Shown: positions 48,914-60,588 of the stretch, piece after piece
Position numbering within the stretch: position 1 is the first letter of the stretch
How the letters are laid out: the number at the start of each line of letters is the position of its first letter
From: Dissulfurispiraceae bacterium
GTDB taxonomy: Bacteria; Nitrospirota; Thermodesulfovibrionia; Thermodesulfovibrionales; Dissulfurispiraceae
Direction: 5' to 3'
Assembly (NCBI GenBank): GCA_036781645.1
Contig: DAIQAO010000003.1
Span: 2,865 to 66,864, forward strand
Length of the DNA stretch: 64,000 nt
The notes under the pieces: model-generated
What the model was told of the DNA's origin: nothing
The model's input: the letters and a program-made list of their open reading frames with translations, nothing else
Databases searched by the model: none
Program-made: the position numbers and the translations under genes

Positions 48914-50608
48914 ATGTCAGGCTATACAGGCAAAAGCATAATAGTTGATTTAACAAGACAGGAGATAACGATTGATAAAATTTCTCCTGAACTTTACGAG
49001 GAATATATTGGCGGCAGAGGCATAGGCGTTTCAATGGTTGCTGATAGCATTTCTGCCGATTGTTATTCCCCTGAGATGCCTATTATATTTGCAACTGGCC
49101 CCCTCACAGGCACCCCTTCGATAACATCTGGGAGGATTTCTGTCATATCCAAATCTCCCCTAACAGGAACAGTGTTTGATTGCTCAGCAGGCGGTCGTTT
49201 CGGGACGAGGTTGAAAAAGGCAGGATACGACATTATTGAAATCAGGGGGGTATCGCAAAGTTGGGTTTCCCTTATTATTGACAATGACAAAGTTGTTATC
49301 GCTGACGCATCACGTCTTGCAGGCAAAAACATTTCCAAATTGAAAGATTCTATGGATAATGATTTCTCTTCGGCACTGATCGGCATAGCAGGCGAAAAAC
49401 AGGTTAGATTTGCCGCTATTGTTTTTGATGGACACTATTGCGCGGGCAGGGGCGGCCTAGGCGCTGTGATGGGCGCTAAGAAATTAAAGGCAATATTTGT
49501 CCGAGGTAATGGCGAGATAACAGTCGCTGATACCGATGGACTTCAGAAGGCAAATACAGAGATAATGAGGCTTTTGAGGGCTTCACCTGCTATTTATGGC
49601 GAATTTGGTCTATCAAAATTCGGAACTGCAGCCCTTGTTGATCTTATACACTCAAGAAGGATGGAGCCTACAAATAATTTTAGAGATACTTTCTTCAGTG
49701 AGGCTTCCAATTACTCAGGATATAATCTCAAAAAAAGCTTTAATTCTAAAAATACAGGTTGTGCCGGCTGTCCGGTGCTTTGCAAAAAAGTGGGCAAAAA
49801 CGGAGAGATTATACCTGAATATGAAACGGTCTCGCATTTTGGAGCATTAAACTGCTGTGGAGATATTCAATCAATACTAATGGCGAACGATATATGCAAC
49901 GACTACGGTATGGACACGATAAGCGCCGCCTCAACTATAGCCTGCTACACCGAGATTGAGGGCAAAAAACTATCTCCTTCCGAGATTATCGAACTTCTCA
50001 AGGCTATAGGAAACCGTAGCCAAATTGGAAATAAACTTGCCGAAGGGTCTTTCAGATATGCATCTTATGCTGGATGCCCAGAATTAAGCATGTCAGTTAA
50101 AGGACTCGAACTGCCCGCCTACGATCCAAGAGGCGCCTATGGAATGGCTCTTGCCTATGCCACATCTAATAGGGGGGGATGTCATTTGAGGGCTTACCCT
50201 ATAAGCCATGAGATACTGCGGAAACCTGTTGCTACAGATAGATTTTCCTTCGAAGGCAAGGCAAGAATAATCAAGATAGCAGAGGATCTTAACGCTGTGG
50301 TTGATTCTATGACTGCGTGCAAGTTTATTTTCTTTGCAGCAGGGCTTGAAGAATATTCAAAAGTTTTAAAGGCAGTAACGGGGGATAATCACGATGTCCA
50401 ATCCCTTTTAAGAACTGGAGAGAAAATCTGGAATCTTGAAAGAAGTCTTAATGAGTCCATCGGCTTCAATAAAACCCATGATGACCTGCCAAAGAGGTTT
50501 TTCACAGAAGAAGGCTCTTCAAGTCGAAATATCAAAATCCCGCCAATCAATAGAAAGGAATTTCTTAAGGCAAAGGAAAGATATTATCGGATCAGAGGTT
50601 ACTTTTAA
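48914..50608 (+). CDS. aldehyde:ferredoxin oxidoreductase family (tungstopterin) enzyme
   Basis: GYTGKSIIVDLT...YIGGRGIG N-terminus, the CxxC...C 4Fe-4S ligands (CAGCPVLC) and the GMDTISA block. Confidence 0.88.
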   Translation: MSGYTGKSIIVDLTRQEITIDKISPELYEEYIGGRGIGVSMVADSISADCYSPEMPIIFATGPLTGTPSITSGRISVISKSPLTGTVFDCSAGGRFGTRLKKAGYDIIEIRGVSQSWVSLIIDNDKVVIADASRLAGKNISKLKDSMDNDFSSALIGIAGEKQVRFAAIVFDGHYCAGRGGLGAVMGAKKLKAIFVRGNGEITVADTDGLQKANTEIMRLLRASPAIYGEFGLSKFGTAALVDLIHSRRMEPTNNFRDTFFSEASNYSGYNLKKSFNSKNTGCAGCPVLCKKVGKNGEIIPEYETVSHFGALNCCGDIQSILMANDICNDYGMDTISAASTIACYTEIEGKKLSPSEIIELLKAIGNRSQIGNKLAEGSFRYASYAGCPELSMSVKGLELPAYDPRGAYGMALAYATSNRGGCHLRAYPISHEILRKPVATDRFSFEGKARIIKIAEDLNAVVDSMTACKFIFFAAGLEEYSKVLKAVTGDNHDVQSLLRTGEKIWNLERSLNESIGFNKTHDDLPKRFFTEEGSSSRNIKIPPINRKEFLKAKERYYRIRGYF

Positions 50609-50611
50609 TTT

Positions 50612-50778
50612 CTAACGGAGCGATAAGAAAGGCTTCTTGAGCATTTTTACCATCGAAGAATTTTTTATATTTGGCTTGATCTTTTTTAAAGCAAGGGGGT
50701 TAGCCAAAATTTCATCGAGCTTTCTTTTATAAAGGGTCGTATAAAAATTTTTCGCCAGCCTTTCTATAAAATCTTTAG
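50612..50778. repeat. family-1-like palindromic element, copy G (divergent)
   Basis: Termini CTAACGGAGCGATAAGAAAGGC / GCCTTTCTATAAAATCTTTAG are inverted and match the terminus consensus. Confidence 0.4.
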
Positions 50779-50905
50779 AGTGCTTTATATTTCTAACTCC
50801 TCACGCAGTTCTGAGAATTCAAGAATTAATAAACTATCCCGCTATCGGTTAGCTATATAAGACGCTTTTGGTGTTTTTATCGATATTCTTCTCCATAGGT
50901 GTCTG

Positions 50906-50960
50906 AAATAATATTCAAGCAGGAATTATGAAACGATTTCTTTGCCCAAGAACTATCTTC
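50906..50960. repeat. 55-bp family-2 repeat, second copy
   Basis: AAATAATATTCAAGCAGGAATTATGAAACGATTTCTTTGCCCAAGAACTATCTTC. By eye it differs from 31528-31582 by a few substitutions and one indel. Confidence 0.65.
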
Positions 50961-50968
50961 GTCCATGT

Positions 50969-51107
50969 CCTAAAATAGCGATAAGCACCTCATCATTGCG
51001 ACCCTGAGCAAAGCGAAAGGGAAGCAATCTCGCCTTTATTATTAAGATTGCCACGAACCCTACGGGTTCTCGCAATGGACAGGTATGATTTTTCTCAATA
51101 TTTTAAA
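50969..51107. repeat. palindromic intergenic element, copy C (family 1)
   Basis: CCTAAAATAGCGATAAGCACCTCATCATTGCGACC...GAAGCAATC...GATTGCCAC...TCTCGCAATGGAC...TTTTTCTCAATATTTTAAA. Closely parallels copy A. Confidence 0.7.
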
Positions 51108-51328
51108 TTACGACAAAATTCCCTTTCTTAGTAAGAATTTTTTCTTAGAAAAACTAGGCATTCTTCCAATTATATTTTCCCCGACAAACTGATATTCTTA
51201 AATTAACAAGACAGCAGGAGGTGTTACAAGGGCATTGAAACAATATCAACCGAAGGGCATGGTCGCAGATGCACATTAAGGCATCTCAATAAATCAACTA
51301 ATTTAAGATTAAAAAAAGGAGGTTTAAG

Positions 51329-51730
51329 ATGTTTTTCTACAAAGGTGGACAGACAGTCAAGAAAGGAACTTACTGGGATTCTGAGAGGAGGACAAAGATA
51401 GTTATCGATTCAGAGGGCACCCTGCCGGGAAGCAAAAGGGACATATATTTCAAGCTCCCTGAGAGCTATTTATTAATCCCGCTTCTGCTGTTAGGGTTGT
51501 TTCTCTCGATGGCTCTTCCATACGGGATGGGTGTAGTAGCGTTTATAGCCATAATAATTCTTTCAGCGACACTATACACTGCAGGACTGGCAAGCTTGCG
51601 TCTGTTTAAGGAGATGTTGGGCAAGACAGCTACTTTTGATTATACGCCTACAACTGCTTATATGGCAGGCAAGAAAGTTAAGAAGGTTAATAGGGAAAAC
51701 AAAGAGGCTGATGAAAAGACAGCCGATTAA
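51329..51730 (+). CDS. small two-helix membrane protein, paralog 1 of an unrecognised family
   Basis: 133 aa with AAGGAGG SD. N-terminus MFFYKGGQTVKKGTYW...LPG...IYFKLPE. Hydrophobic hairpin with a PYGMG turn. Lys-rich tail after TPTTAYMAGKK. Confidence 0.75.
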   Translation: MFFYKGGQTVKKGTYWDSERRTKIVIDSEGTLPGSKRDIYFKLPESYLLIPLLLLGLFLSMALPYGMGVVAFIAIIILSATLYTAGLASLRLFKEMLGKTATFDYTPTTAYMAGKKVKKVNRENKEADEKTAD

Positions 51731-51764
51731 AACTCTGTATGAATTTATTTCAAGGAGGTGAGCG

Positions 51765-52172
51765 ATGGGCATTTATCACGGTGGAATAGCTGTCACAAGG
51801 GGTGTTTACTGGAACCCAATTGATGGACAGAGTGTGAGCATCAGGAAGCGAAATATTTTGCCTGGAGATGAGAGCAGGAAATACCTTAAGGTATCTTCAG
51901 CGTGGCTTCTGCTGGTTGCACCCCTTATTGCTATGGTTTTTATACTTTTTTTACCGCTTTTGGGTATAGGCGTTCTATTATCCCTGGCGGCGATACCGCT
52001 TATCAAGCTCTCTTTTGAGGTTATTGCAAGCGCAGTTCGTATATGTTCAGGTCTTCATACAAGAAGGGTTGTGCACAAATGGAGCTTTTCAGGGAAGCTG
52101 CACAAACACAATAAAAGGCTAACTGATGACTTGAATCAAAAACGGGATGGCACAAGCAATAAGAATTGCTAA
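51765..52172 (+). CDS. small two-helix membrane protein, paralog 2 (divergent)
   Basis: 135 aa with AGGAGG SD. GGIAVTRGVYW...LPGDE...YLKV. Hairpin with a PLLGIG turn. Basic tail after HKWSFSGK. Confidence 0.7.
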   Translation: MGIYHGGIAVTRGVYWNPIDGQSVSIRKRNILPGDESRKYLKVSSAWLLLVAPLIAMVFILFLPLLGIGVLLSLAAIPLIKLSFEVIASAVRICSGLHTRRVVHKWSFSGKLHKHNKRLTDDLNQKRDGTSNKNC

Positions 52173-52228
52173 GGTAAAGGTTTTAAAGTAAAACTTTTGA
52201 CGAATTAAAAGCAAACAAGGAGGACAGG

Positions 52229-52654
52229 ATGTATTTCTTCAGAGGCGGACAGATAGTTAAAAAAGGCACTTATTGGGAGCCCGAAAGGAATGTCAAGATA
52301 GTTCTCAAGGATGATGGTGTTTTACCGGGAGACGAGAAACTTATTTACTTCAAACTGCCTGAGTGTTATCTCTTGGTGCCGGTGCTACTGTTTGGCCTCG
52401 TTCTGTCTATGGCTATCCCATACGGCATCGGGGTTGTTTTGTTCTTCCTGCTATGCGGGGTTCACAAATTTCTTTTCTCCGTGATTACAGAGATCGAGGT
52501 TCTCGCAGGAAAGGCTATAGCATATTTTACTGCTGCGTATAGACCTAATAAGGCATTCTTTTCTGGCAGCTCAAGGAAAATTAAGGGAACTAAAAAGTCT
52601 CGAAACGAGAAGTCTAATACTTCAGAGAAAATAGAAAATAAAAACAAAGAATAG
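52229..52654 (+). CDS. small two-helix membrane protein, paralog 3
   Basis: 141 aa with AGGAGG SD. MYFFRGGQIVKKGTYW...LPGDE...IYFKLPE, a PYGIG turn, and RPNKAFFSGSSRK followed by a Lys/Asn/Glu tail. Confidence 0.75.
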   Translation: MYFFRGGQIVKKGTYWEPERNVKIVLKDDGVLPGDEKLIYFKLPECYLLVPVLLFGLVLSMAIPYGIGVVLFFLLCGVHKFLFSVITEIEVLAGKAIAYFTAAYRPNKAFFSGSSRKIKGTKKSRNEKSNTSEKIENKNKE

Positions 52655-52734
52655 GAGGTGTTTTATATGCACACCTTTATGATTTTATAAGCCAGGTAAA
52701 TGAAATTCAATACCTGCTTGCAGTTTTATCCATA

Positions 52735-53058
52735 GTGGGTTTCATTATCTTTGTAGAGGCATTCAAACCGAAACCCTTCAAAGGGTTGAGAAAAATGGTT
52801 GCCGAAGATGTTGGATTTGTGAAAGAGCAGGGCAAGAATAATAATCTTTTGGTTATTAAAAACACTATTGCAGGTGGAGCATATACAGCGCTGTATGTTA
52901 TTGCTCTACCTCTGCTGTTTTTGCACGGCGTTTCCGTTCTGATGAGCAGGTTGTTCAGTTCATTTACATATGTTGGCTGGAGCCCTGTAAGGGCATACTT
53001 CACGGGTAGAAAAGGGGTTAAAAAGTCCTCAGATAAAAATACTGGCGCTGATGCCTGA
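52735..53058 (+). CDS. small membrane protein sharing only the C-terminal motif of the paralog family; 5' end uncertain
   Basis: The C-terminal SPVRAYFTGRKGVKK matches the tails of paralogs 1-3. The GTG at 52735 falls inside a hydrophobic helix. An SD-preceded ATG at 52667 is in another frame (MHTFMIL then stop), which suggests a 1-nt frame break. Confidence 0.5.
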   Translation: MGFIIFVEAFKPKPFKGLRKMVAEDVGFVKEQGKNNNLLVIKNTIAGGAYTALYVIALPLLFLHGVSVLMSRLFSSFTYVGWSPVRAYFTGRKGVKKSSDKNTGADA

Positions 53059-53092
53059 AAACTGAATACCTACAAAAGGAGGGGTTTAAATA

Positions 53093-53560
53093 ATGAAACC
53101 TTCTGTAAAGGTGCGATGGCTGATTGCCCTTGCCGCGCCGTTATTTTTAATAGGGATTTTTATCATAACGGAGTCTCCGGTTTTAGGCAAAGGGTTAAAC
53201 ATGCCGCGCACTATTATCATCAAGCATATACAGAAAGAATATAGCCCGGTGAAATTTGACCATACAGCCCATGTGCCGTTGGCAAGCGGATGCGGGCAGT
53301 GCCACCACATGCATCATGATAAGCAGAACGCTACTTGCAAGGAATGTCATGCTATTGACTCTGGAACTTTCAAGTCTTCTGTCAAAGAGAGTTTTCTACC
53401 CTGTAGTGCATGTCATACGGATAATTCAGCGGACTCGCCGGGGGTGCCCGGACTTAAGGTGGCACTACATAAAAAGTGCTTTGAGTGTCATATAGGCATG
53501 GGCGATCTGGGCGTTTCGCCACAGGGATGCACCAAGACATGCCATACGAAAAAAAAGTGA
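53093..53560 (+). CDS. periplasmic multiheme c-type cytochrome (c3-like; 4 CxxCH plus 1 CxxxCH)
   Basis: Signal anchor. CGQCH, CKECH, CSACH, CFECH and CTKTCH. FDHTAH motif. Confidence 0.85.
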   Translation: MKPSVKVRWLIALAAPLFLIGIFIITESPVLGKGLNMPRTIIIKHIQKEYSPVKFDHTAHVPLASGCGQCHHMHHDKQNATCKECHAIDSGTFKSSVKESFLPCSACHTDNSADSPGVPGLKVALHKKCFECHIGMGDLGVSPQGCTKTCHTKKK

Positions 53561-53576: not shown

Positions 53577-54548
53577 ATGTCTGAAGAGATGAAAGATAAC
53601 AAAGTCGAACAAACAGAAACGCACAAATCAGATAATCCTTCTTCTACCTCAAGAGGCGTTACCAGACGGGGTTTCCTTACACTTTCCGCTGTAACGGCAT
53701 GTGCTGGGCTAGGTATTTCTTCGAAGGCTCACGCCCGCCCTGAATTTAGCGGCTGGCCCGGAAGCTACGGAATGCTCGTGGATTTCACCTTGTGTGTAGG
53801 CTGTAGAAGCTGTGAAAAGGCTTGTAATGAAGAAAATAAACTGCCGGCTCCTGATAAGCCATTTGAGGACGATTCAGTATTTAAAGAGCGCAGACAGCCT
53901 TCCGAACAGGCTTATACGGTGGTAAACAGATACGAGAATACAAAGAATCCAGAAGTTCCGGTTTTCAGAAAAATCCAGTGTAATCACTGCCTTGAGCCTG
54001 CATGTGCTACTGCATGCCCCATAAAGGCATACACAAAAACCCCGCAGGGAGCGGTTATTTACAATGAAGATTTGTGTTTTGGATGCAGATATTGCGTCAT
54101 CGCCTGCCCTTTCAATATTCCGGGCTACGATTATAAGAGTGCTTTAGAGCCCAAGGTTATGAAATGCACCTTCTGTTATCCAAGGATTAAAAATAAGCAA
54201 CTGCCAGCCTGCGCTGAGGCTTGTCCGAGAGGATCGCTTACATTCGGCAAGAGGGATGAATTAATTAAAATTGCGAGAAAGAGGATTATGGATAATCCCA
54301 ATAAATATATCGACCATATTTACGGCGAGCATGAGGTGGGCGGAACATCCTGGCTTTATTTGTCTTCAGTGCCTTTTGAACAGCTTGGATTTCCTTCAAA
54401 TCTGCCAAAGAAACCGCTCATCGAACTGACGGAGGGTTATCTTTCTATGGTTCCTGTTATTTTCACTACATTTCCTGCAATTTTTGCAGCCATATATGCG
54501 GCTACCCGGTACCGAGACAAGCACTCAAAGGAGGATTCTCATGAATAA
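53577..54548 (+). CDS. Tat-exported 4x[4Fe-4S] ferredoxin-type subunit with a C-terminal membrane anchor (NrfC/HmcB/HybA-like)
   Basis: Twin-arginine TRRGFLTL. Four cluster motifs (CVGCRSCEKAC, CNHCLEPACATACP, CFGCRYCVIACP, CTFC...CAEACP). C-terminal hydrophobic helix. Confidence 0.88.
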   Translation: MSEEMKDNKVEQTETHKSDNPSSTSRGVTRRGFLTLSAVTACAGLGISSKAHARPEFSGWPGSYGMLVDFTLCVGCRSCEKACNEENKLPAPDKPFEDDSVFKERRQPSEQAYTVVNRYENTKNPEVPVFRKIQCNHCLEPACATACPIKAYTKTPQGAVIYNEDLCFGCRYCVIACPFNIPGYDYKSALEPKVMKCTFCYPRIKNKQLPACAEACPRGSLTFGKRDELIKIARKRIMDNPNKYIDHIYGEHEVGGTSWLYLSSVPFEQLGFPSNLPKKPLIELTEGYLSMVPVIFTTFPAIFAAIYAATRYRDKHSKEDSHE

Positions 54549-55800
54549 AGACATTAACTATACAACTCATCAAGCCGAAGGAACACATATCAGTTTCAGG
54601 GCGCGACTCCTGGACAAGCTTTTTTTAGGCATGAATGTCGCAGACTACGCAAAATCTCTTGTGACGCCCTTCAATCTATTTGCGGCAGTCATCATAGCAG
54701 CATCGGCGCCCATATTCTATATGAGATATACACAGGGTCTTGCCTCCGTTGTGCATGGAACTAATGAGTATCCATGGAGCCTCCTGCTAAGCTGGGGAAT
54801 TTTTGCAGGTGAACCTTTGTTTGCCGCAGGTTTTGTGGTAGCAACGGCTTATTACCTGCTTGGAATGAAGCGTTACCGTTCTCTGGTTCGTCTTGCAGTG
54901 CTGGGCGGGATGCTTGGTTATGCCTTTGCAGCATCCTATCTTATAATTGACCTGGGGCGCCCGTGGCGCATCTATTGTCCGATGGTGATAAACTTCGGTC
55001 CTTCATCTGTTTTATTTGTAGTTGCTTGGCATGTTGCCCTGTATTGCACCGTTCAGCTTCTGGAATTCTCTCCTTCTATTCTGGAATGGCTTGGCTCAAA
55101 ACGATTGCACAGGTGGGCTACATCCATCACGGTTGCTCTTATAATCGGCGGGGTAATTCTATCAACGGTTCATCAGTCCGCTCTCGGCTCTATGTATCTG
55201 ATTACACCTGCAAAGCTGCATCCCTTATGGTATTCATCATATTTGCCGCTCTTATTTTTCAGCTCAGCGATTTATGCAGCAATGTCTTTTGCTATTGTTC
55301 TTGGATTTGTTGCAAGGAGATATTTCAGGGATAGGTGTGATGAAGAATTCCTCACAAACCTGCCTATACTGACTCTGGGTTTAGGCAAGGGGGCAGCACT
55401 CTCAATGTATGTGTATTTTGCCCTTAAATTGCTTGCCTTAGGTCAGAGCAATCAATGGGTATTACTCGCAACTCCCTTTGGCTATTGGTATCTCGTGGAA
55501 CTTTTGGGTTTTGTTGCGATTCCAATGTTTTTATTCACAGTGGGGGTAAAGAAAGAAAACTTAAATTTAATTAATTTCTCAGCAGTGTTTGCAATAGTGG
55601 GTATTGTGCTAAATAGGGTAAATGTAAACCTCATTGCATATAACTGGAATCTGCCCGACCATTTCAAGCATATAATCCCACCGTGGACTGAAATCATAAT
55701 GATTATGGCGATGATAACTCTTCATATACTCGTTTTCAGGTGGATATTGAATAGATTTCCTGTTACGCGCGAACTGCCGGAATACAAAGGGATGCATTAA
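54541..55800 (+). CDS. NrfD/PsrC-family polytopic quinone-interacting membrane subunit (HmcC/DsrP-like)
   Basis: About 420 aa with about 10 hydrophobic helices. The start is taken at MNKDINY (ATG 54541, AGGAGG SD), overlapping the preceding stop. Confidence 0.8.
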   Translation: MNKDINYTTHQAEGTHISFRARLLDKLFLGMNVADYAKSLVTPFNLFAAVIIAASAPIFYMRYTQGLASVVHGTNEYPWSLLLSWGIFAGEPLFAAGFVVATAYYLLGMKRYRSLVRLAVLGGMLGYAFAASYLIIDLGRPWRIYCPMVINFGPSSVLFVVAWHVALYCTVQLLEFSPSILEWLGSKRLHRWATSITVALIIGGVILSTVHQSALGSMYLITPAKLHPLWYSSYLPLLFFSSAIYAAMSFAIVLGFVARRYFRDRCDEEFLTNLPILTLGLGKGAALSMYVYFALKLLALGQSNQWVLLATPFGYWYLVELLGFVAIPMFLFTVGVKKENLNLINFSAVFAIVGIVLNRVNVNLIAYNWNLPDHFKHIIPPWTEIIMIMAMITLHILVFRWILNRFPVTRELPEYKGMH

Positions 55801-55824: not shown

Positions 55825-57263
55825 ATGATACCAAAGATTCTAATACAAACAGCAATCGCCTTGAGCATTGTTGTATATGTCTTTGCAGCAACACCGTCAA
55901 CGGTTAACAGTGAAGACATAAATCAATACTGCTTTTCGTGTCATGCCAAAAAAGGCTCCGTAAAAAAATTCATGGAAGGGGAGTCTATTTCAGTATATGT
56001 GAATCCTCAGGCATACGAAAAATCGGTTCACAAAAAGCTTTCGTGCACTGTTTGTCACAATGAATTTTCGGACAAAAAACATCCTGACAGGGTATTCCGC
56101 AATAAGCACCAGTACAGCATAAAAGAGTCCCAGAAATGCCTTCAATGCCATCAAGAAGACTCACTTAAATCCCGCCCTGTGCATGAGCAAATCTTTGCTA
56201 AAGGCAAATCCGGTGGCGCAGTCGTTTGCACCAACTGCCACAGCGCCCATGCGGCAACCCGCATTAGCGGAGGCGGCATAGCAGCGTCAGAAGAGGCATA
56301 TTGCATGAAATGTCACAAAACAGAAAACATCATGAAATTCGCAACCGGCAAAATAGTTTCTACCAAAGTTAATACGGAATCCCTTAAAAGTTCTGCTCAC
56401 AGGAATCTCAGCTGCTCCGACTGCCACTTCAATTTTTCAGCAGAAGACCATCCCAAAAGACGGTTTAGATCCGAAAGGGAGTATAGGATAGCGAGTTTTG
56501 AGATGTGCAGGAGATGCCACTTCGACAAGTATTCTCAGGTTTCAAACAGCATTCACTATGCTATGATCAGCAGTGGAAGACTCAATGCCCCAACCTGCGT
56601 TGACTGCCATGGAAGCCACGAAATTTCGCCGGCTCGCAAGAGCAAAATTTCGACCGTAAGAATGTGTGAGAAGTGCCATCATAAGCCATATGAGTTATAT
56701 GTTAACAGCGTTCACGGCAGCAAACTGCTGACAAGGAACATAAAGGATACACCTGTTTGCATTGATTGTCACTCACCTCATGATATTAAGGCAGTCTCGA
56801 CTTCCGACTTTCATGATAATATTCCTCAAAAGTGCAGCGGATGCCATGCCGATAAAAAGCTCATGAGCAAGTATGGCCTTTCAACCGATGTTTTAAGACC
56901 TATCTTTCAGATTTTCACGGTTTGACTCTGGAGCTTCGCAAAAAAGAAAGGCGGAATATCGGCAAGCAAACATCTCAGATGGCCGTTTGCACAGATTGCC
57001 ACGGCTCCCACGAGATAGTGCCTTTTTCTGGGGCTGATACGCAGGTGATAAAGAGCAGGCTGCTTAAGCGCTGTCAAACATGCCATGCTGATGCGCCAGA
57101 AAATTTCCCTGATGCCTGGCTTTCACATTATAGCGCAACCCTTGCAGCTACACCTGTCCTTTTTGTTGTCGGGTGGTTTTATAAGATTCTGTTGTGGGTT
57201 ATCGTAGCAGGTGTGCTTTTTCAAATAGCTCTTGATATCTGGAGACATATCCAGAATAGGTAA
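55825..57263 (+). pseudogene. 13-heme c-type cytochrome with a C-terminal membrane helix, split by a 1-nt frame change near 56891-56897
   Basis: ORF 55825..56925 has 11 CxxCH. ORF 56922..57263 has a TTG start, no SD and no signal peptide, with 2 more CxxCH and a TM helix. The second frame is open back to 56856 and would read ...STDVLKTYLSDFHGLTLELRK across the junction. Confidence 0.8.
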
Positions 57264-57289: not shown

Positions 57290-58030
57290 ATGGGATTAAA
57301 TGAAAAAAAGACAGATGAGGAGTTAATCAGGAGATTCGGTTTATACAGAATCATTGAACATTCCCTGCTCATTATACTTTTTATTGCTCTTCTCATAACA
57401 GGGCTTCCTCAAAAGTTTTACTTTCTTCACATCTCACATTCAATCCTGCTCATTTTAGGCGGCATTGATAATGCCAGAGCCATACATCACATAGCGGCAA
57501 TGCTTTTTGTCTTATTGGCTCTACAGCACATTATTATTAATTTTTTTGGCACTATATTTTTCCAGTGGAAACCCTCCATGCTCATAACATTCAAGGATTT
57601 TCATGACGCTGTGCACAATGTCAGATATTATCTCGGCATTGTTGAGAAGCCGGCTATGTGCGGGAGATATACATACAAGGAAAAATGTATTTACTGGCTT
57701 GTCCTTACCGGCGGGCTTCAGATGATAATCACCGGCTTGATACTATGGTTTCCTATCACAATAACCAAATATGTCCATGGTCAGGTTATTCCTATCGCTA
57801 AAACAATTCATTCGAGCGAGGCGATGCTATTATTTGTCCTCGTAGTCACATGGCATATATACGATTCTATATTAAGCCCCGATGTATTCCCCCTTAACAA
57901 GAGTATCTTTACCGGATATATGCCTAAAAAACAGATGAAAAGACTTCACCCCCTTGAACTGCAATGGCAGAAAGAAGAAGCCGACTTAGAGGCAAAAGAA
58001 AGAGTTCAAGCCGTTGTGGATAGTGAATGA
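57290..58030 (+). CDS. b-type cytochrome membrane subunit (FdnI / Ni-Fe hydrogenase cytochrome b-like)
   Basis: 246 aa with 4-5 TM helices. His residues are placed as in diheme cytochrome b subunits (RIIEHSL, AIHHIAA, TIHSSEA, TWHIYD). Confidence 0.7.
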   Translation: MGLNEKKTDEELIRRFGLYRIIEHSLLIILFIALLITGLPQKFYFLHISHSILLILGGIDNARAIHHIAAMLFVLLALQHIIINFFGTIFFQWKPSMLITFKDFHDAVHNVRYYLGIVEKPAMCGRYTYKEKCIYWLVLTGGLQMIITGLILWFPITITKYVHGQVIPIAKTIHSSEAMLLFVLVVTWHIYDSILSPDVFPLNKSIFTGYMPKKQMKRLHPLELQWQKEEADLEAKERVQAVVDSE

Positions 58031-58112: not shown

Positions 58113-59937
58113 ATGTTAAAGAAAATCCTAATCGCTGTAATCATAAACATCATAGTGATATCAGTCACTTTAGGAGTTGTAAGTTACATAACCGTCCACG
58201 AAAGCATCAACCAAGCCCTCGAAAACAGAGTTGCCCTGACTAAAATTATCGCAAAATATGTAGATATATCCCTCGACAACAGTATAAACAGGTTATATGA
58301 AATTCCTTATTCCAATAATAGCAATAGTAGAAAAAACAATGCTGAATCTCTACAGGTGCAAAAAAACTCTCGAAACCGTTTATAAGCATTCTGTTTTCAG
58401 TGAGGGCTTTTTGATATTAGATAAACACGGTAATACTCTGCACACTTATCCTGAAAGTATAAAGCACTATCTAAATCTTACCCATGTTGTGCACTTTAAT
58501 GAAGCCGTTCGAGAAGGCAAGCCTGTCATCTCTAATGTTTACACAATTGAGCCAATTCAGAAAAAAGTGATATTTATATTTGTCCCTCGCAAGGATTCCT
58601 CTGGGAGGGTGATAGGCATTATAGGCGGGATGATGGGGCCTACTTCTGAATTGTTTAATGAGCTTCTTTTAAGTGCAAAAAAAGAGTGGGGTGGATTTGC
58701 AGAGATTTTAGATATCAACGAAAATATTGTTGCGTCTTCAAATCCCGCCATGACCTTTCAGTCCCATAACCACGATAATATGATAAGCAAGCTGATTAAA
58801 GAAAATAAATCTGGAATTGTTGAGTGCCGCCATTCATCCTATTATTCAGATTTTGAGATTGAAGATGTTCATTTGCTCACAGTCGTTCCTATCAGGCTTG
58901 CTTCATGGGCTGTCATTATCGGCCAGCCTGAGAGAATAATCTTTTCACCTGTCTTCAGTCTCCAGATCGACTTCCTGATTGTTGTAGTAATCTTTCTTAT
59001 TATATCTACTGTTATCTCAATACATCTGAGCAAGAAAATCGTAAATCCAATCAAATCTCTTATCTGCGCTGCCAAGAAACTCGCATCCGGCGACCTTTCA
59101 ACTCCTATCGGAAAATTTGGGAGTGATGAGACCCTCGAACTAAGCCATAGCTTTGAGGAAATGAGGGAGAAACTTTCTGAATCATACGAAAGGATTAAAA
59201 TTTACAACACCGAACTTGAAAAAATGGTCGAAGCCAGAACTCACGAGATAGATGAAAACAGGCAGATTATCAAACAGTTGCTCATGAAGGTTATCAATTC
59301 TCAGGAAGACGAAAGGAAGCGGGTTGCCCGTGACCTTCATGATACGATATTGCAGGATGTATCTGCTTTTCTGATAAAATTGGAGATATTCAGACAGCAC
59401 CCTGAGATTATATCTCCGCAGAAAATTGACGAAATGCGTGATTTAGCCGTTAAGACAATAGACAATATTCACAATATCATTAAAAATCTCAGGCCATCTA
59501 TGCTTGATGACCTTGGGCTGGAAGCCGCCATAAATGTGCTCTTAAAAACTCAACTTTTATCAAAGGGGATTTCCTGCCAATTTGAGGCAAAATCTCCTAT
59601 TTCAGGCAAGCTGTCTCAAAATGTAGAGATTTCTATTTTCAGGATAGTTCAGGAGGCTATAAGAAACATCGCCCGTCATTCTCAAGCAGAAAATGTCTAT
59701 ATTTCACTTGATATAATAGACTCATCTCTAAAGGTAGCTATTGAGGATGACGGCATAGGGTTTAATGTTGAAGAATTTATGCACCTTCCTTCAGATGACG
59801 GCAGGGGGCTTGGTATAATGGGCATGAAAGAGAGGATATCACTGCTTGGAGGCGTTTTTGATATTCAATCGATATCGGGGAAGGGGACGCAATTATACAT
59901 AACTATTCCATTGGGTGTTGAGGCAAAACATGACTAA
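58113..59937 (+). pseudogene. NarX/DegS-type sensor histidine kinase (periplasmic sensor, HAMP, HisKA_3, HATPase) with an N-terminal frame break
   Basis: ORF 58113..58385 holds TM1 and the start of the sensor domain. ORF 58297..59937 continues with TM2, HAMP, the H-box ERKRVARDLHDTILQ and the ATPase. The frames overlap across poly-A runs at 58332-58337 and 58361-58367. Confidence 0.8.
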
Positions 59938-60588
59938 AACAAAAATCATGATTGCAGACGATCACGCCTTAGTCAGAGAAGGGATAGCCGCCCTTCTCAA
60001 CTTCCATGATGATATAGATGTCGTAGGACAGGCTTCTGACGGTCTTGAGGCTATCAGGCTTGCACACCAGCTCAAACCCGATATAATCCTGATGGACATC
60101 AGTATGCCCACTTTGGGTGGCTTTGAGGCAACCCTCGAGATTAAAAAAACACTGCCTGATACAAAGATTATAATGCTCACTCAATATGATGACAGGGAAT
60201 ATGTCGCCCGTTTTCTGAAGGCAGGGATTTCAGGCTACCTTCTCAAGAAGGCTGTTGGAATGAACTAATCAGCGCCATCAGGGCAGTCCAGAGAGGAGAA
60301 TTTTACCTGTTTTCGTCAATTGCATCAGAGATAGTCGCGGGTTATCTTGACAAAGATAAAAAACCTTCCGAAGATGATTTGTATGAAAAGCTAACCGACA
60401 GAGAAAAACAGGTTCTTAAACTGTTAGCCGAAGGCTATAGTCATAAAGAGATTGCCGCCTGTCTTAATATAAGCGCCAAGACTGTCATAGCCCATCAGAC
60501 GAATATCTCCGAAAAACTCGGCGTCCGTACACGTGCAGGACTCATAAAATTCGCCATCTCCAAAGGAATCATTAAGCTCGAGACATAA
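59930..60588 (+). pseudogene. NarL/FixJ-type response regulator, frame-broken between the receiver and LuxR-type HTH domains
   Basis: Receiver KIMIADDHALVREG...DISMP...GISGYLLKKAVG stops at 60266-60268. A shifted frame continues ELISAIRAVQRGEFYL...LTDREKQVLKLLAEGYSHKEIA. The start ATG at 59930 overlaps the kinase stop. Confidence 0.8.

Follow-up and report, generated by a model that had tools for sequence, protein, structure and literature searches.

What are the small membrane proteins whose genes form an array at the head of a cytochrome operon in a Dissulfurispiraceae bacterium, and do they belong with the redox complex encoded behind them? The array lies at positions 51329-53058 of a 64,000-nucleotide (nt) stretch of contig DAIQAO010000003.1 (assembly GCA_036781645.1), the whole of which was analysed and is called the window below. 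An original prediction had described four consecutive same-strand open reading frames (ORFs) of 133, 135, 141 and at least 107 amino acids (aa) as four paralogs of an unrecognised family. All four ORFs were found. The first three, named T1, T2 and T3, are paralogs as proposed; the fourth, ORF4, has only a C-terminal module in common with them and, together with its intact homologues, represents a gene type named TB (FRAMESHIFTED in the window). The reading that we favour, tentatively and with slightly less than even confidence, is that the T proteins and TB act as regulator-controlled accessory or organising membrane subunits of a redox complex resembling the Hmc complex. It is favoured because the T family has a module in common with the HmcD-like TB, because natural fusions of T sequences to a multihaem cytochrome exist, because the genes are members of the operon, and because the complex has no other cytoplasmic component.

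The paralogy of T1-T3 lies far beyond chance, as judged from BLASTP identities and E values: T1 and T3 are 43% identical over their full length (E 2e-38) and T1 and T2 are 29% identical (E 3e-11). Within the first 72 residues, T1 and T3 have 47 in common (65%), in keeping with the roughly 60% over some 70 residues that had been estimated by eye. The expectation of a Shine-Dalgarno (SD) site before each ORF was borne out for ORFs 1-3, which have GGAGG-type sites at 51318-22, 51754-58 and 52219-23, but not for ORF4, which has none in frame. T1 orthologues from 14 species are 55-80% identical to the window protein; a T3 orthologue is missing in some related species (L013, L016, L017 and L019). 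Relative to the closest species with intact genes (L011), ratios of non-synonymous to synonymous substitution rates (dN/dS) were 0.04 for T1, 0.14 for T2 and 0.07 for TB, values to be taken as upper-level indicators only because dS is saturated. Changes seen in T1-T3 within the species are mostly synonymous (5 synonymous versus 1-2 non-synonymous), whereas polymorphism in TB is denser and more often non-synonymous. By these measures, T1-T3 are judged to be genuine conserved genes under purifying selection. One strain (L008) has a G34E change at T3 codon 34 (window equivalent 52329), inside a nearly invariant L-P-G sequence.

By all searches made, the T-type proteins appear to be without a curated family, a structural relative or a literature. 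T1-T3 had no match in Pfam-A, NCBIfam or PHROGs; 52 close and 67 distant relatives, scanned singly, gave no consistent Pfam or NCBIfam match for the T type, and precomputed Pfam assignments were blank for all T homologues given in three profile searches. The best match in profile searches of the PDB with three alignments was a helix pair of a G-protein-coupled receptor (E 0.05), and a Foldseek search of the PDB with the AlphaFold model of T (predicted local distance difference test score, pLDDT, 72) reached an E value of 0.67 at best. Nothing relevant was found in the literature on the function of HmcD or on Hmc-like clusters in Thermodesulfovibrionia or Dissulfurispiraceae. The claim of an unrecognised family thus stands for T1-T3, which no Pfam or NCBIfam model covers; it does not stand for ORF4, which has an HmcD-like N-terminus (NF045712/PF28260). 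Nor are the genes orphans, a caveat attached to the original prediction, since homologues are abundant and amount to hundreds of clusters. A profile of T1-T3 retrieved 77 clusters at 90% identity; an exhaustive HMMER search yielded 555 representative clusters at 50% identity with E<=1e-3 (121 with E<=1e-10), two more T profiles 262 and 708 clusters, and a scan of one metagenome at least 564 confirmed relatives. The few named sources are metagenome-assembled genomes of Nitrospirota or Dissulfurispiraceae, one "Myxococcales" and one "Betaproteobacteria". Among GTDB species genomes, 14 loci were located, which without exception come from Nitrospirota/Thermodesulfovibrionia; this narrow range arises partly by construction because the scan patterns were T1-specific.

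Two helices followed by a charged C-terminal tail would also describe a holin-like or toxin-like small membrane protein. The likeness is confined to this architecture and to a weak Pfam holin match (E 0.088) in 2 of the 52 close members; set against it are the lack of any PHROGs match, the lack of lysin or phage genes nearby and a strict synteny with respiratory and regulatory genes, and we consider this explanation very improbable indeed. Class II holin identity in particular is effectively refuted by the context and the negative PHROGs result.

The anatomy of the T proteins is well defined. The AlphaFold model (mean pLDDT 72; about 80-89 in the ordered part) has strands at residues 3-5, 13-17, 22-26 and 39-43, then helices at 45-62 and 67-100 separated by a conserved P-Y-G-x-G turn, and a disordered tail. 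It agrees with the architecture proposed at the outset, namely a soluble N-terminal module of about 45 aa, a hairpin with a Pro/Gly turn and a basic tail. Near-invariant positions are G6, G7, V10, G13, Y15, W16, L32-P33-G34, Y40, P64, G66 and G68. A C-terminal motif follows the hairpin; in an alignment of 386 sequences it reads (I/V/A)-S-F-G-W-R-P-x-x-A-Y-L-A-G-K-K-K-K, varying as W/Y-x-P-x-x-A-Y/F-L/F/M-x-G before the Lys run, and its P is conserved in 100%, its A in 86%, its Y in 83% and its G in 87% of the sequences. The suggestion that all four ORFs, ORF4 included, end in this motif was upheld by the same alignment and by the profile comparisons described below. Lys and Arg (K/R) residues number 9 and 10 on the two flanks of the T1 hydrophobic stretch; such K/R-rich flanks fit a tight hairpin with both the N- and the C-terminus inside, the topology that the original prediction had put forward. 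The hydrophobic stretch measures about 32-44 residues around a central Pro, and because it has only about 32 residues in many relatives, the hairpin may be re-entrant instead of fully membrane-spanning. Natural tandem duplications exist in which beta module and hairpin occur twice in one polypeptide, joined by a basic linker (P0111, P0115, P0129, P0138, P0196), a layout that agrees with the same topology.

A variant, TC, combines hairpin, motif and tail with an unrelated N-terminus that lacks the beta module and is longer and polar in some members; examples are L002 8437-8802, its equivalents in L014 and L020, and P0096, P0103 and P0125. Since TC keeps these elements without the beta module, the C-terminal module is the constant part of the T family. 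Many distant members (P0132, P0178, P0208, P0214) carry an extra conserved C-terminal helix, L-x-x-L-E-x-E-I-x-x-R-R-x-x-G-E, after the Lys-rich segment.

ORF4 is best described as a chimera of an HmcD-like helix and the T-family C-terminal module, and no full fourth copy of T, as sequence and profile comparisons indicate. Intact TB homologues have 126-161 aa, start with MHTL(F/Y)DFIS and possess a second hydrophobic region and a conserved tail. Their C-terminal part is homologous to that of the T proteins (hhalign probabilities of 96.8% and 98.2%, E 2.7e-10 and 4e-14), the common module consisting of the second hydrophobic region, the W-S-P-V-R-A-Y-F-T-G-R-K motif and the basic tail; the alignment of ORF4 itself with T3 is confined to the last ~45 residues (E 9e-4). 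The first ~33 residues of TB, with the pattern M-x-T-L-x-D-F-I-x-x-V-x-G-I-x-Y and a transmembrane helix, match the NCBIfam model NF045712 ("sulfate respiration complex protein HmcD"), which has 38 positions and a curated cutoff of 34 bits. Matches at E<=1 were obtained for 8 of 14 TB proteins, the best being that of L025 (31.9 bits, E 9.7e-8), and the window TB, once corrected for its frameshift, scored 12.8 bits (E 0.086), short of the cutoff. In addition, precomputed Pfam assignments place PF28260 (DVU_0533) on the TB orthologues of L025, L026 and L027. DVU_0533 is HmcD, a protein of 5.8 kDa (PMC10920352). With 126-161 aa, intact TB orthologues are not single-helix small proteins in the manner of HmcD; their gene position is that expected of HmcD, as TB comes directly before the small cytochrome c, HmcB-like and HmcC-like genes, both in the window and in 14 related species. 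The N-terminal flank of TB is devoid of K/R, and the loop after its first helix is basic, again in keeping with the topology proposed for the hairpin.

In the window, TB is interrupted. The mechanically called ORF4 extends from a GTG at 52735 to 53058 (107 aa), yet TB homology resumes at 52675 in the -1 frame (LYDFISQVNEIQYLLAVLSIVGF...), and the window TB is 53% identical to the intact TB of L001 over residues 4-124 (tblastn). The cause is a 1-nt deletion after TB codon 3, where L011 and L012 read ATG CAC ACA CTA TAT GAT. An assembly error was rejected as the explanation: an identical sequence, free of gaps, is present in four independent assemblies, two of which differ from the window by about 0.4-0.5%, and the frameshift is taken to be real in the lineage because these assemblies concur. 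Programmed -1 frameshifting at ATG CAC ACC TTT was considered and set aside, as no canonical slippery heptamer is present. A product initiated at the GTG, if made, would be without half of the first helix.

Features of the array and the operon that follows it (positions in the window; +, forward strand)
Feature	Position	Strand	Description
Operator-like palindrome TAAGAATTTTTTCTTA	51132..51147	.	Consensus TAGGAA-N4-TTCC(T/A)A; 197 nt before the T1 ATG
Promoter region and 5' leader	51148..51328	+	TATATT at 51172-77; TGATA-N-GCT-N-AAT box at ~51190-51203
T1	51329..51730	+	133 aa; beta module, hydrophobic hairpin, FDYTPTTAYMAGKK motif, Lys-rich tail
T2	51765..52172	+	135 aa; divergent paralog; degenerate C-terminal motif HKWSFSGK
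T3	52229..52654	+	141 aa; nearest paralog of T1; motif AYRPNKAFFSGSSRK
TB remnant start	52667..52690	+	ATG after SD AGGAGG (52653-58); reads MHTFMIL* from 1-nt deletion
TB body, -1 frame	52675..53058	+	HmcD-like transmembrane helix, basic loop, family hairpin, GWSPVRAYFTGRK tail
Small c-type cytochrome	53093..53560	+	155 aa; like the HmcA C-terminal part and cytochrome c3/c7
HmcB-like periplasmic iron-sulphur (FeS) subunit	53577..54548	+	NF045715 409 bits, cutoff 420; Pfam Fer4_11
HmcC-like NrfD-family membrane subunit	54541..55800	+	NF045714 389 bits, cutoff 550; Pfam NrfD
Multihaem cytochrome c, membrane-anchored (C-terminal)	55825..57263	+	Split by 1-nt deletion, T run at 56891
FdnI/HydC-type cytochrome b	57290..58030	+	
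Histidine kinase	58113..59937	+	HAMP, HisKA_3, weak dCache_1; frameshift between ~58304 and 58360
LuxR/GerE-type response regulator	59930..60588	+	Frameshift at G run, 60257 (1-nt deletion)

A direct connection between the T family and the redox proteins is provided by natural fusions. In three representative clusters (P0181, P0170, P0189), the beta module and first hydrophobic helix are followed by a multihaem cytochrome. The T-derived part of P0181 comprises residues 1-61, of which 1-46 align with T1, and residues 62-602 are a full-length homologue of the multihaem cytochrome encoded in the operon (E 1e-71); the alignment begins at the first residue of that cytochrome, with its signal peptide. 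Behind the fusion gene (L115) comes a cytochrome b gene that is coupled to it in translation. Domains carrying c-type haem are necessarily periplasmic, and for this reason the beta module of the fusion protein should be cytoplasmic. The existence of these fusions argues for a physical proximity of the T proteins to the cytochrome c/cytochrome b unit.

The genes downstream of the array encode the components of the presumptive complex. The operon is called Hmc-like because it falls short of the Hmc complex proper: the 16-haem HmcA, HmcE and HmcF are lacking, HmcB and HmcC score below the equivalog cutoffs, and the small cytochrome matches the HmcA model in its C-terminal part only (38 bits against a cutoff of 400). 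Several of these genes are damaged in the window. TB is frameshifted in all four readable assemblies and the kinase in all three. L005, another assembly of this species, has an undamaged multihaem cytochrome gene (479 aa) but indels of its own in the cytochrome b, kinase and regulator genes (window equivalents 57381, 58556 and 60013). The distal half of the operon looks like a case of polymorphic pseudogenisation, with sequencing errors as a possible alternative, and with TB, the kinase, the regulator and, in this assembly, the multihaem cytochrome frameshifted, the system may be partly decayed in the window organism. One could go further and regard the array as a relic, inherited from a functional ancestor at a locus now being lost and with T genes that perhaps idle. 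Besides the frameshifts, the 1-nt indels that differ between assemblies and the denser, more often non-synonymous polymorphism of TB, the absence of the upstream M56-p185 genes and a synteny break exactly at the operator (see below) would fit such a history. However, T1-T3, the small cytochrome, HmcB and HmcC are undisrupted in every assembly, the changes within T1-T3 are predominantly synonymous, and the proposal concerns the state of the locus, not the identity of the family. As an account of the array, we find it decidedly unlikely.

Comparison with related loci placed the array in a wider setting. In 14 of 14 GTDB species loci the order is M56, p185, T1, T2, (T3), TB, small cytochrome, HmcB, HmcC, multihaem cytochrome, cytochrome b, kinase and regulator, where M56 denotes an M56/M48-type zinc protease and p185 a membrane protein of about 180 aa; the TC variant stands beside T1 in some of them. 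The adjacency of cytochrome, FeS and NrfD genes that had been proposed as a check thus recurs in all 14 related species. Most of 35 metagenome loci of at least 4 kb contain the same cluster, whole or in part, with the T-TB unit often duplicated. The copy number varies, from one to four T genes or with T-TB duplicated, and T-TB looks like the minimal unit because it also occurs as stand-alone pairs; conserved neighbours of these pairs were sought and none was found. In the window, the place of M56-p185 upstream of T1 is taken by an aldehyde:ferredoxin oxidoreductase gene (48914-50608), and a search of the 64 kb for M56, p185 and DUF134, which extended to possible remnants in the 720 bp before T1, was negative. 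The first reading of the window had missed the frameshifts, the operator, M56-p185 and the kinase-regulator context altogether.

The constancy of the upstream genes raises the possibility that the T proteins and TB serve in signalling by regulated proteolysis, as membrane-tethered substrates or modulators of M56-p185 or of the HisKA_3 kinase. The likeness would be to BlaR1-BlaI or LiaF-LiaS, and the juxtamembrane motif would be a recognition or cleavage site, a role that its strong conservation would suit. The M56 protein has an HExxH sequence and matches the HtpX and BlaR1 models, in all 14 species and in most metagenome loci M56-p185 immediately precedes the first T gene, and the distant loci L031 and L033 retain the multihaem cytochrome, cytochrome b, M56, p185, kinase, regulator and T. 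Yet the window species keeps T1-T3 under selection with no M56-p185 in its 64 kb, the stand-alone T-TB pairs are likewise without M56-p185 nearby, a BlaI-type (Penicillinase_R-type) repressor is absent from all locus listings, and the beta module is unlike any DNA-binding or signalling domain. On balance we hold this explanation, the chief rival to the subunit reading, doubtful. It is conceivable, though unlikely, that all these parts (T/TB, M56-p185, the dCache kinase with its LuxR-type regulator, and the multihaem cytochrome with cytochrome b) form one undescribed circuit, in which a periplasmic redox or ligand signal would be passed on to gene expression through cleavage or sequestration of T at the W-x-P-x-x-A-Y-x-G motif and the beta module would constitute a new cytoplasmic signalling or adaptor domain.

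Control of the array was approached through the sequences upstream of T1. Thirteen upstream regions could be aligned and contain conserved blocks, chiefly the palindrome. The 51148-51328 region is 69% identical in nucleotide sequence to L011, and nucleotide homology to L011 starts exactly at 51132, where the operator starts. In nearly all related loci, the palindrome occupies a conserved position before the first T gene, with scores of 10-12 out of 12 in most; in random 400-mers of similar composition a score of 10 was attained in 4% of trials and 11 never. It is located about 175-220 nt from T in most loci of the Dissulfurispiraceae type and about 73-99 nt in a second group, where it abuts a TTTACA-N17-TATACA promoter. 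A second near-palindrome, TAAGAAAGGCTTCTTG, with one mismatch, lies at 50624-50639, just past the oxidoreductase stop codon; at this stringency, two matches in the window equal the chance expectation. An Rfam scan of 50500-53200 for a leader RNA gave no match. Between the array and the first cytochrome gene lie 34 nt, as had been noted, and no terminator-like site was found in the intergenic gaps of 34, 56, 12 and 34 nt; together with the upstream operator and promoter, this supports the earlier view that the array heads the cytochrome operon and is likely to be co-transcribed with it. From the fit of a dimeric regulator to an inverted repeat, and from its being encoded in the cluster, we infer that the LuxR/GerE-type regulator would be the protein that binds the palindrome.

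The palindrome also precedes stand-alone T-TB pairs (L027, L042, L055, L062, L065), about 80-95 nt upstream, which suggests that these pairs and the operon belong to one dispersed regulon, since the same site stands before both. Such a regulon would equally serve membrane effectors acting outside the redox complex: T-TB might be wedge-like hairpins, induced by the two-component system, that stabilise or shape the cytoplasmic membrane in the manner of LiaI or PspC-type proteins, with aromatic and Lys-rich segments at the interface. The variable copy number and the short hydrophobic segment with its central Pro and K/R-rich flanks would agree with this. On the other hand, the fusions to the multihaem cytochrome and the HmcD-like helix of TB indicate specific partners, a PspA/LiaH-like protein is absent from all loci, and no Pfam match to LiaI, PspC or related families was obtained. 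A general effect on the membrane strikes us as unlikely.

We return to the proposal that the T proteins and TB are accessory or organising subunits. In this scheme, T1-T3 would be small inner-membrane proteins with a four-strand cytoplasmic beta module of about 43 residues, followed by a hydrophobic helical hairpin kinked at the (L)P-(Y/F/L)-G-x-G turn, so that both ends would face the cytoplasm, and by the juxtamembrane W/Y-x-P-x-x-A-Y/F-x-G motif and the Lys-rich tail. Their genes would come first in a transcript made from the promoter with the conserved palindromic operator, and transcription would most likely run on into the genes of an Hmc-like, quinone-interacting redox complex composed of small cytochrome c, HmcB, HmcC, multihaem cytochrome and cytochrome b. 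The T proteins would work jointly with TB, whose N-terminus is the HmcD-like helix, and the two would give an otherwise periplasm-facing complex a cytoplasmic face. The reality and conservation of the genes, their domain anatomy, the C-terminal module common to the T proteins and the HmcD-like TB, the synteny, the conserved operator and the fusions to the multihaem cytochrome are demonstrated; the physical association, the operator-binding regulator, the topology and the biochemical role of the T proteins are inferred. Several observations weigh against this proposal. The beta module has no sequence or structural likeness to known respiratory subunits among the matches found; all TB matches to the HmcD model remain below the NCBI curated cutoff; in about 10 of the 35 longer metagenome loci, T-TB occurs as a pair without redox genes in its vicinity, so that the pair need not be encoded together with the complex; and in L031 and L033 T stands beside M56, p185, kinase and regulator, outside the redox genes, an arrangement that suits a regulatory function just as well.

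Hmc-type and related NrfCD/cytochrome b complexes move electrons across the membrane in anaerobes, and to our knowledge no function has ever been assigned to their small subunits such as HmcD. With the T family, the present analysis delineates a large group of small membrane proteins that has gone without annotation and could become a Pfam family of its own; its motif, operator and fusion furnish testable handles on the assembly, organisation or regulation of such complexes in anaerobes, among them uncultured Nitrospirota. Immediate testing is limited, as every carrier seen is uncultured.

Among known systems, several offer partial parallels. In Bacillus subtilis, LiaI and LiaF are small hairpin membrane proteins under the control of LiaSR, a pair made up of a HisKA_3 kinase and a palindrome-binding regulator of the NarL/LuxR type, whose genes adjoin theirs. 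However, LiaI and LiaF are not known to have sequence similarity to T and the T loci offer no PspA/LiaH partner; the T context is respiratory, and the kinase of the T cluster, unlike that of LiaSR, has a periplasmic dCache sensor (a weak dCache_1 match in the window). As in BlaR1/MecR1 (M56) with BlaI, an M56-type protease gene lies directly upstream of T in nearly all related loci, but these loci have neither a BlaI-type repressor nor a penicillin-binding sensor domain, they have p185 instead, and the module is absent from the window. Stomatin, caveolin and reticulon-type anchors are short hairpins with a central proline and both flanks on one side of the membrane; their likeness to T is architectural only and implies no homology. 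The multihaem cytochrome and FdnI-type cytochrome b form a pair that resembles a split CbcL-like module. Closest in gene content are the Hmc, Nhc and Ohc NrfCD complexes of sulfate reducers, which also combine a periplasmic cytochrome c, an HmcB-type FeS protein and HmcC (NrfD) in one operon. Compared with Hmc, a membrane-anchored multihaem cytochrome of about 479 aa and an FdnI-type cytochrome b replace the 16-haem HmcA, HmcE and HmcF, and compared with all three the window operon adds the T array along with genes for a two-component system. Of known kinds of protein, the T proteins come closest to the small accessory membrane proteins found in respiratory complexes, HmcD in particular. HmcD of Desulfovibrio vulgaris is like TB in the matching N-terminus, in a gene position beside HmcB and HmcC and in being a small membrane protein. 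It differs in size, with 5.8 kDa (PMC10920352) against the 126-161 aa of TB, which has an extra hairpin, the motif and a Lys tail; the HmcD-like helix is wholly missing from T1-T3, and the TB of the window is frameshifted.

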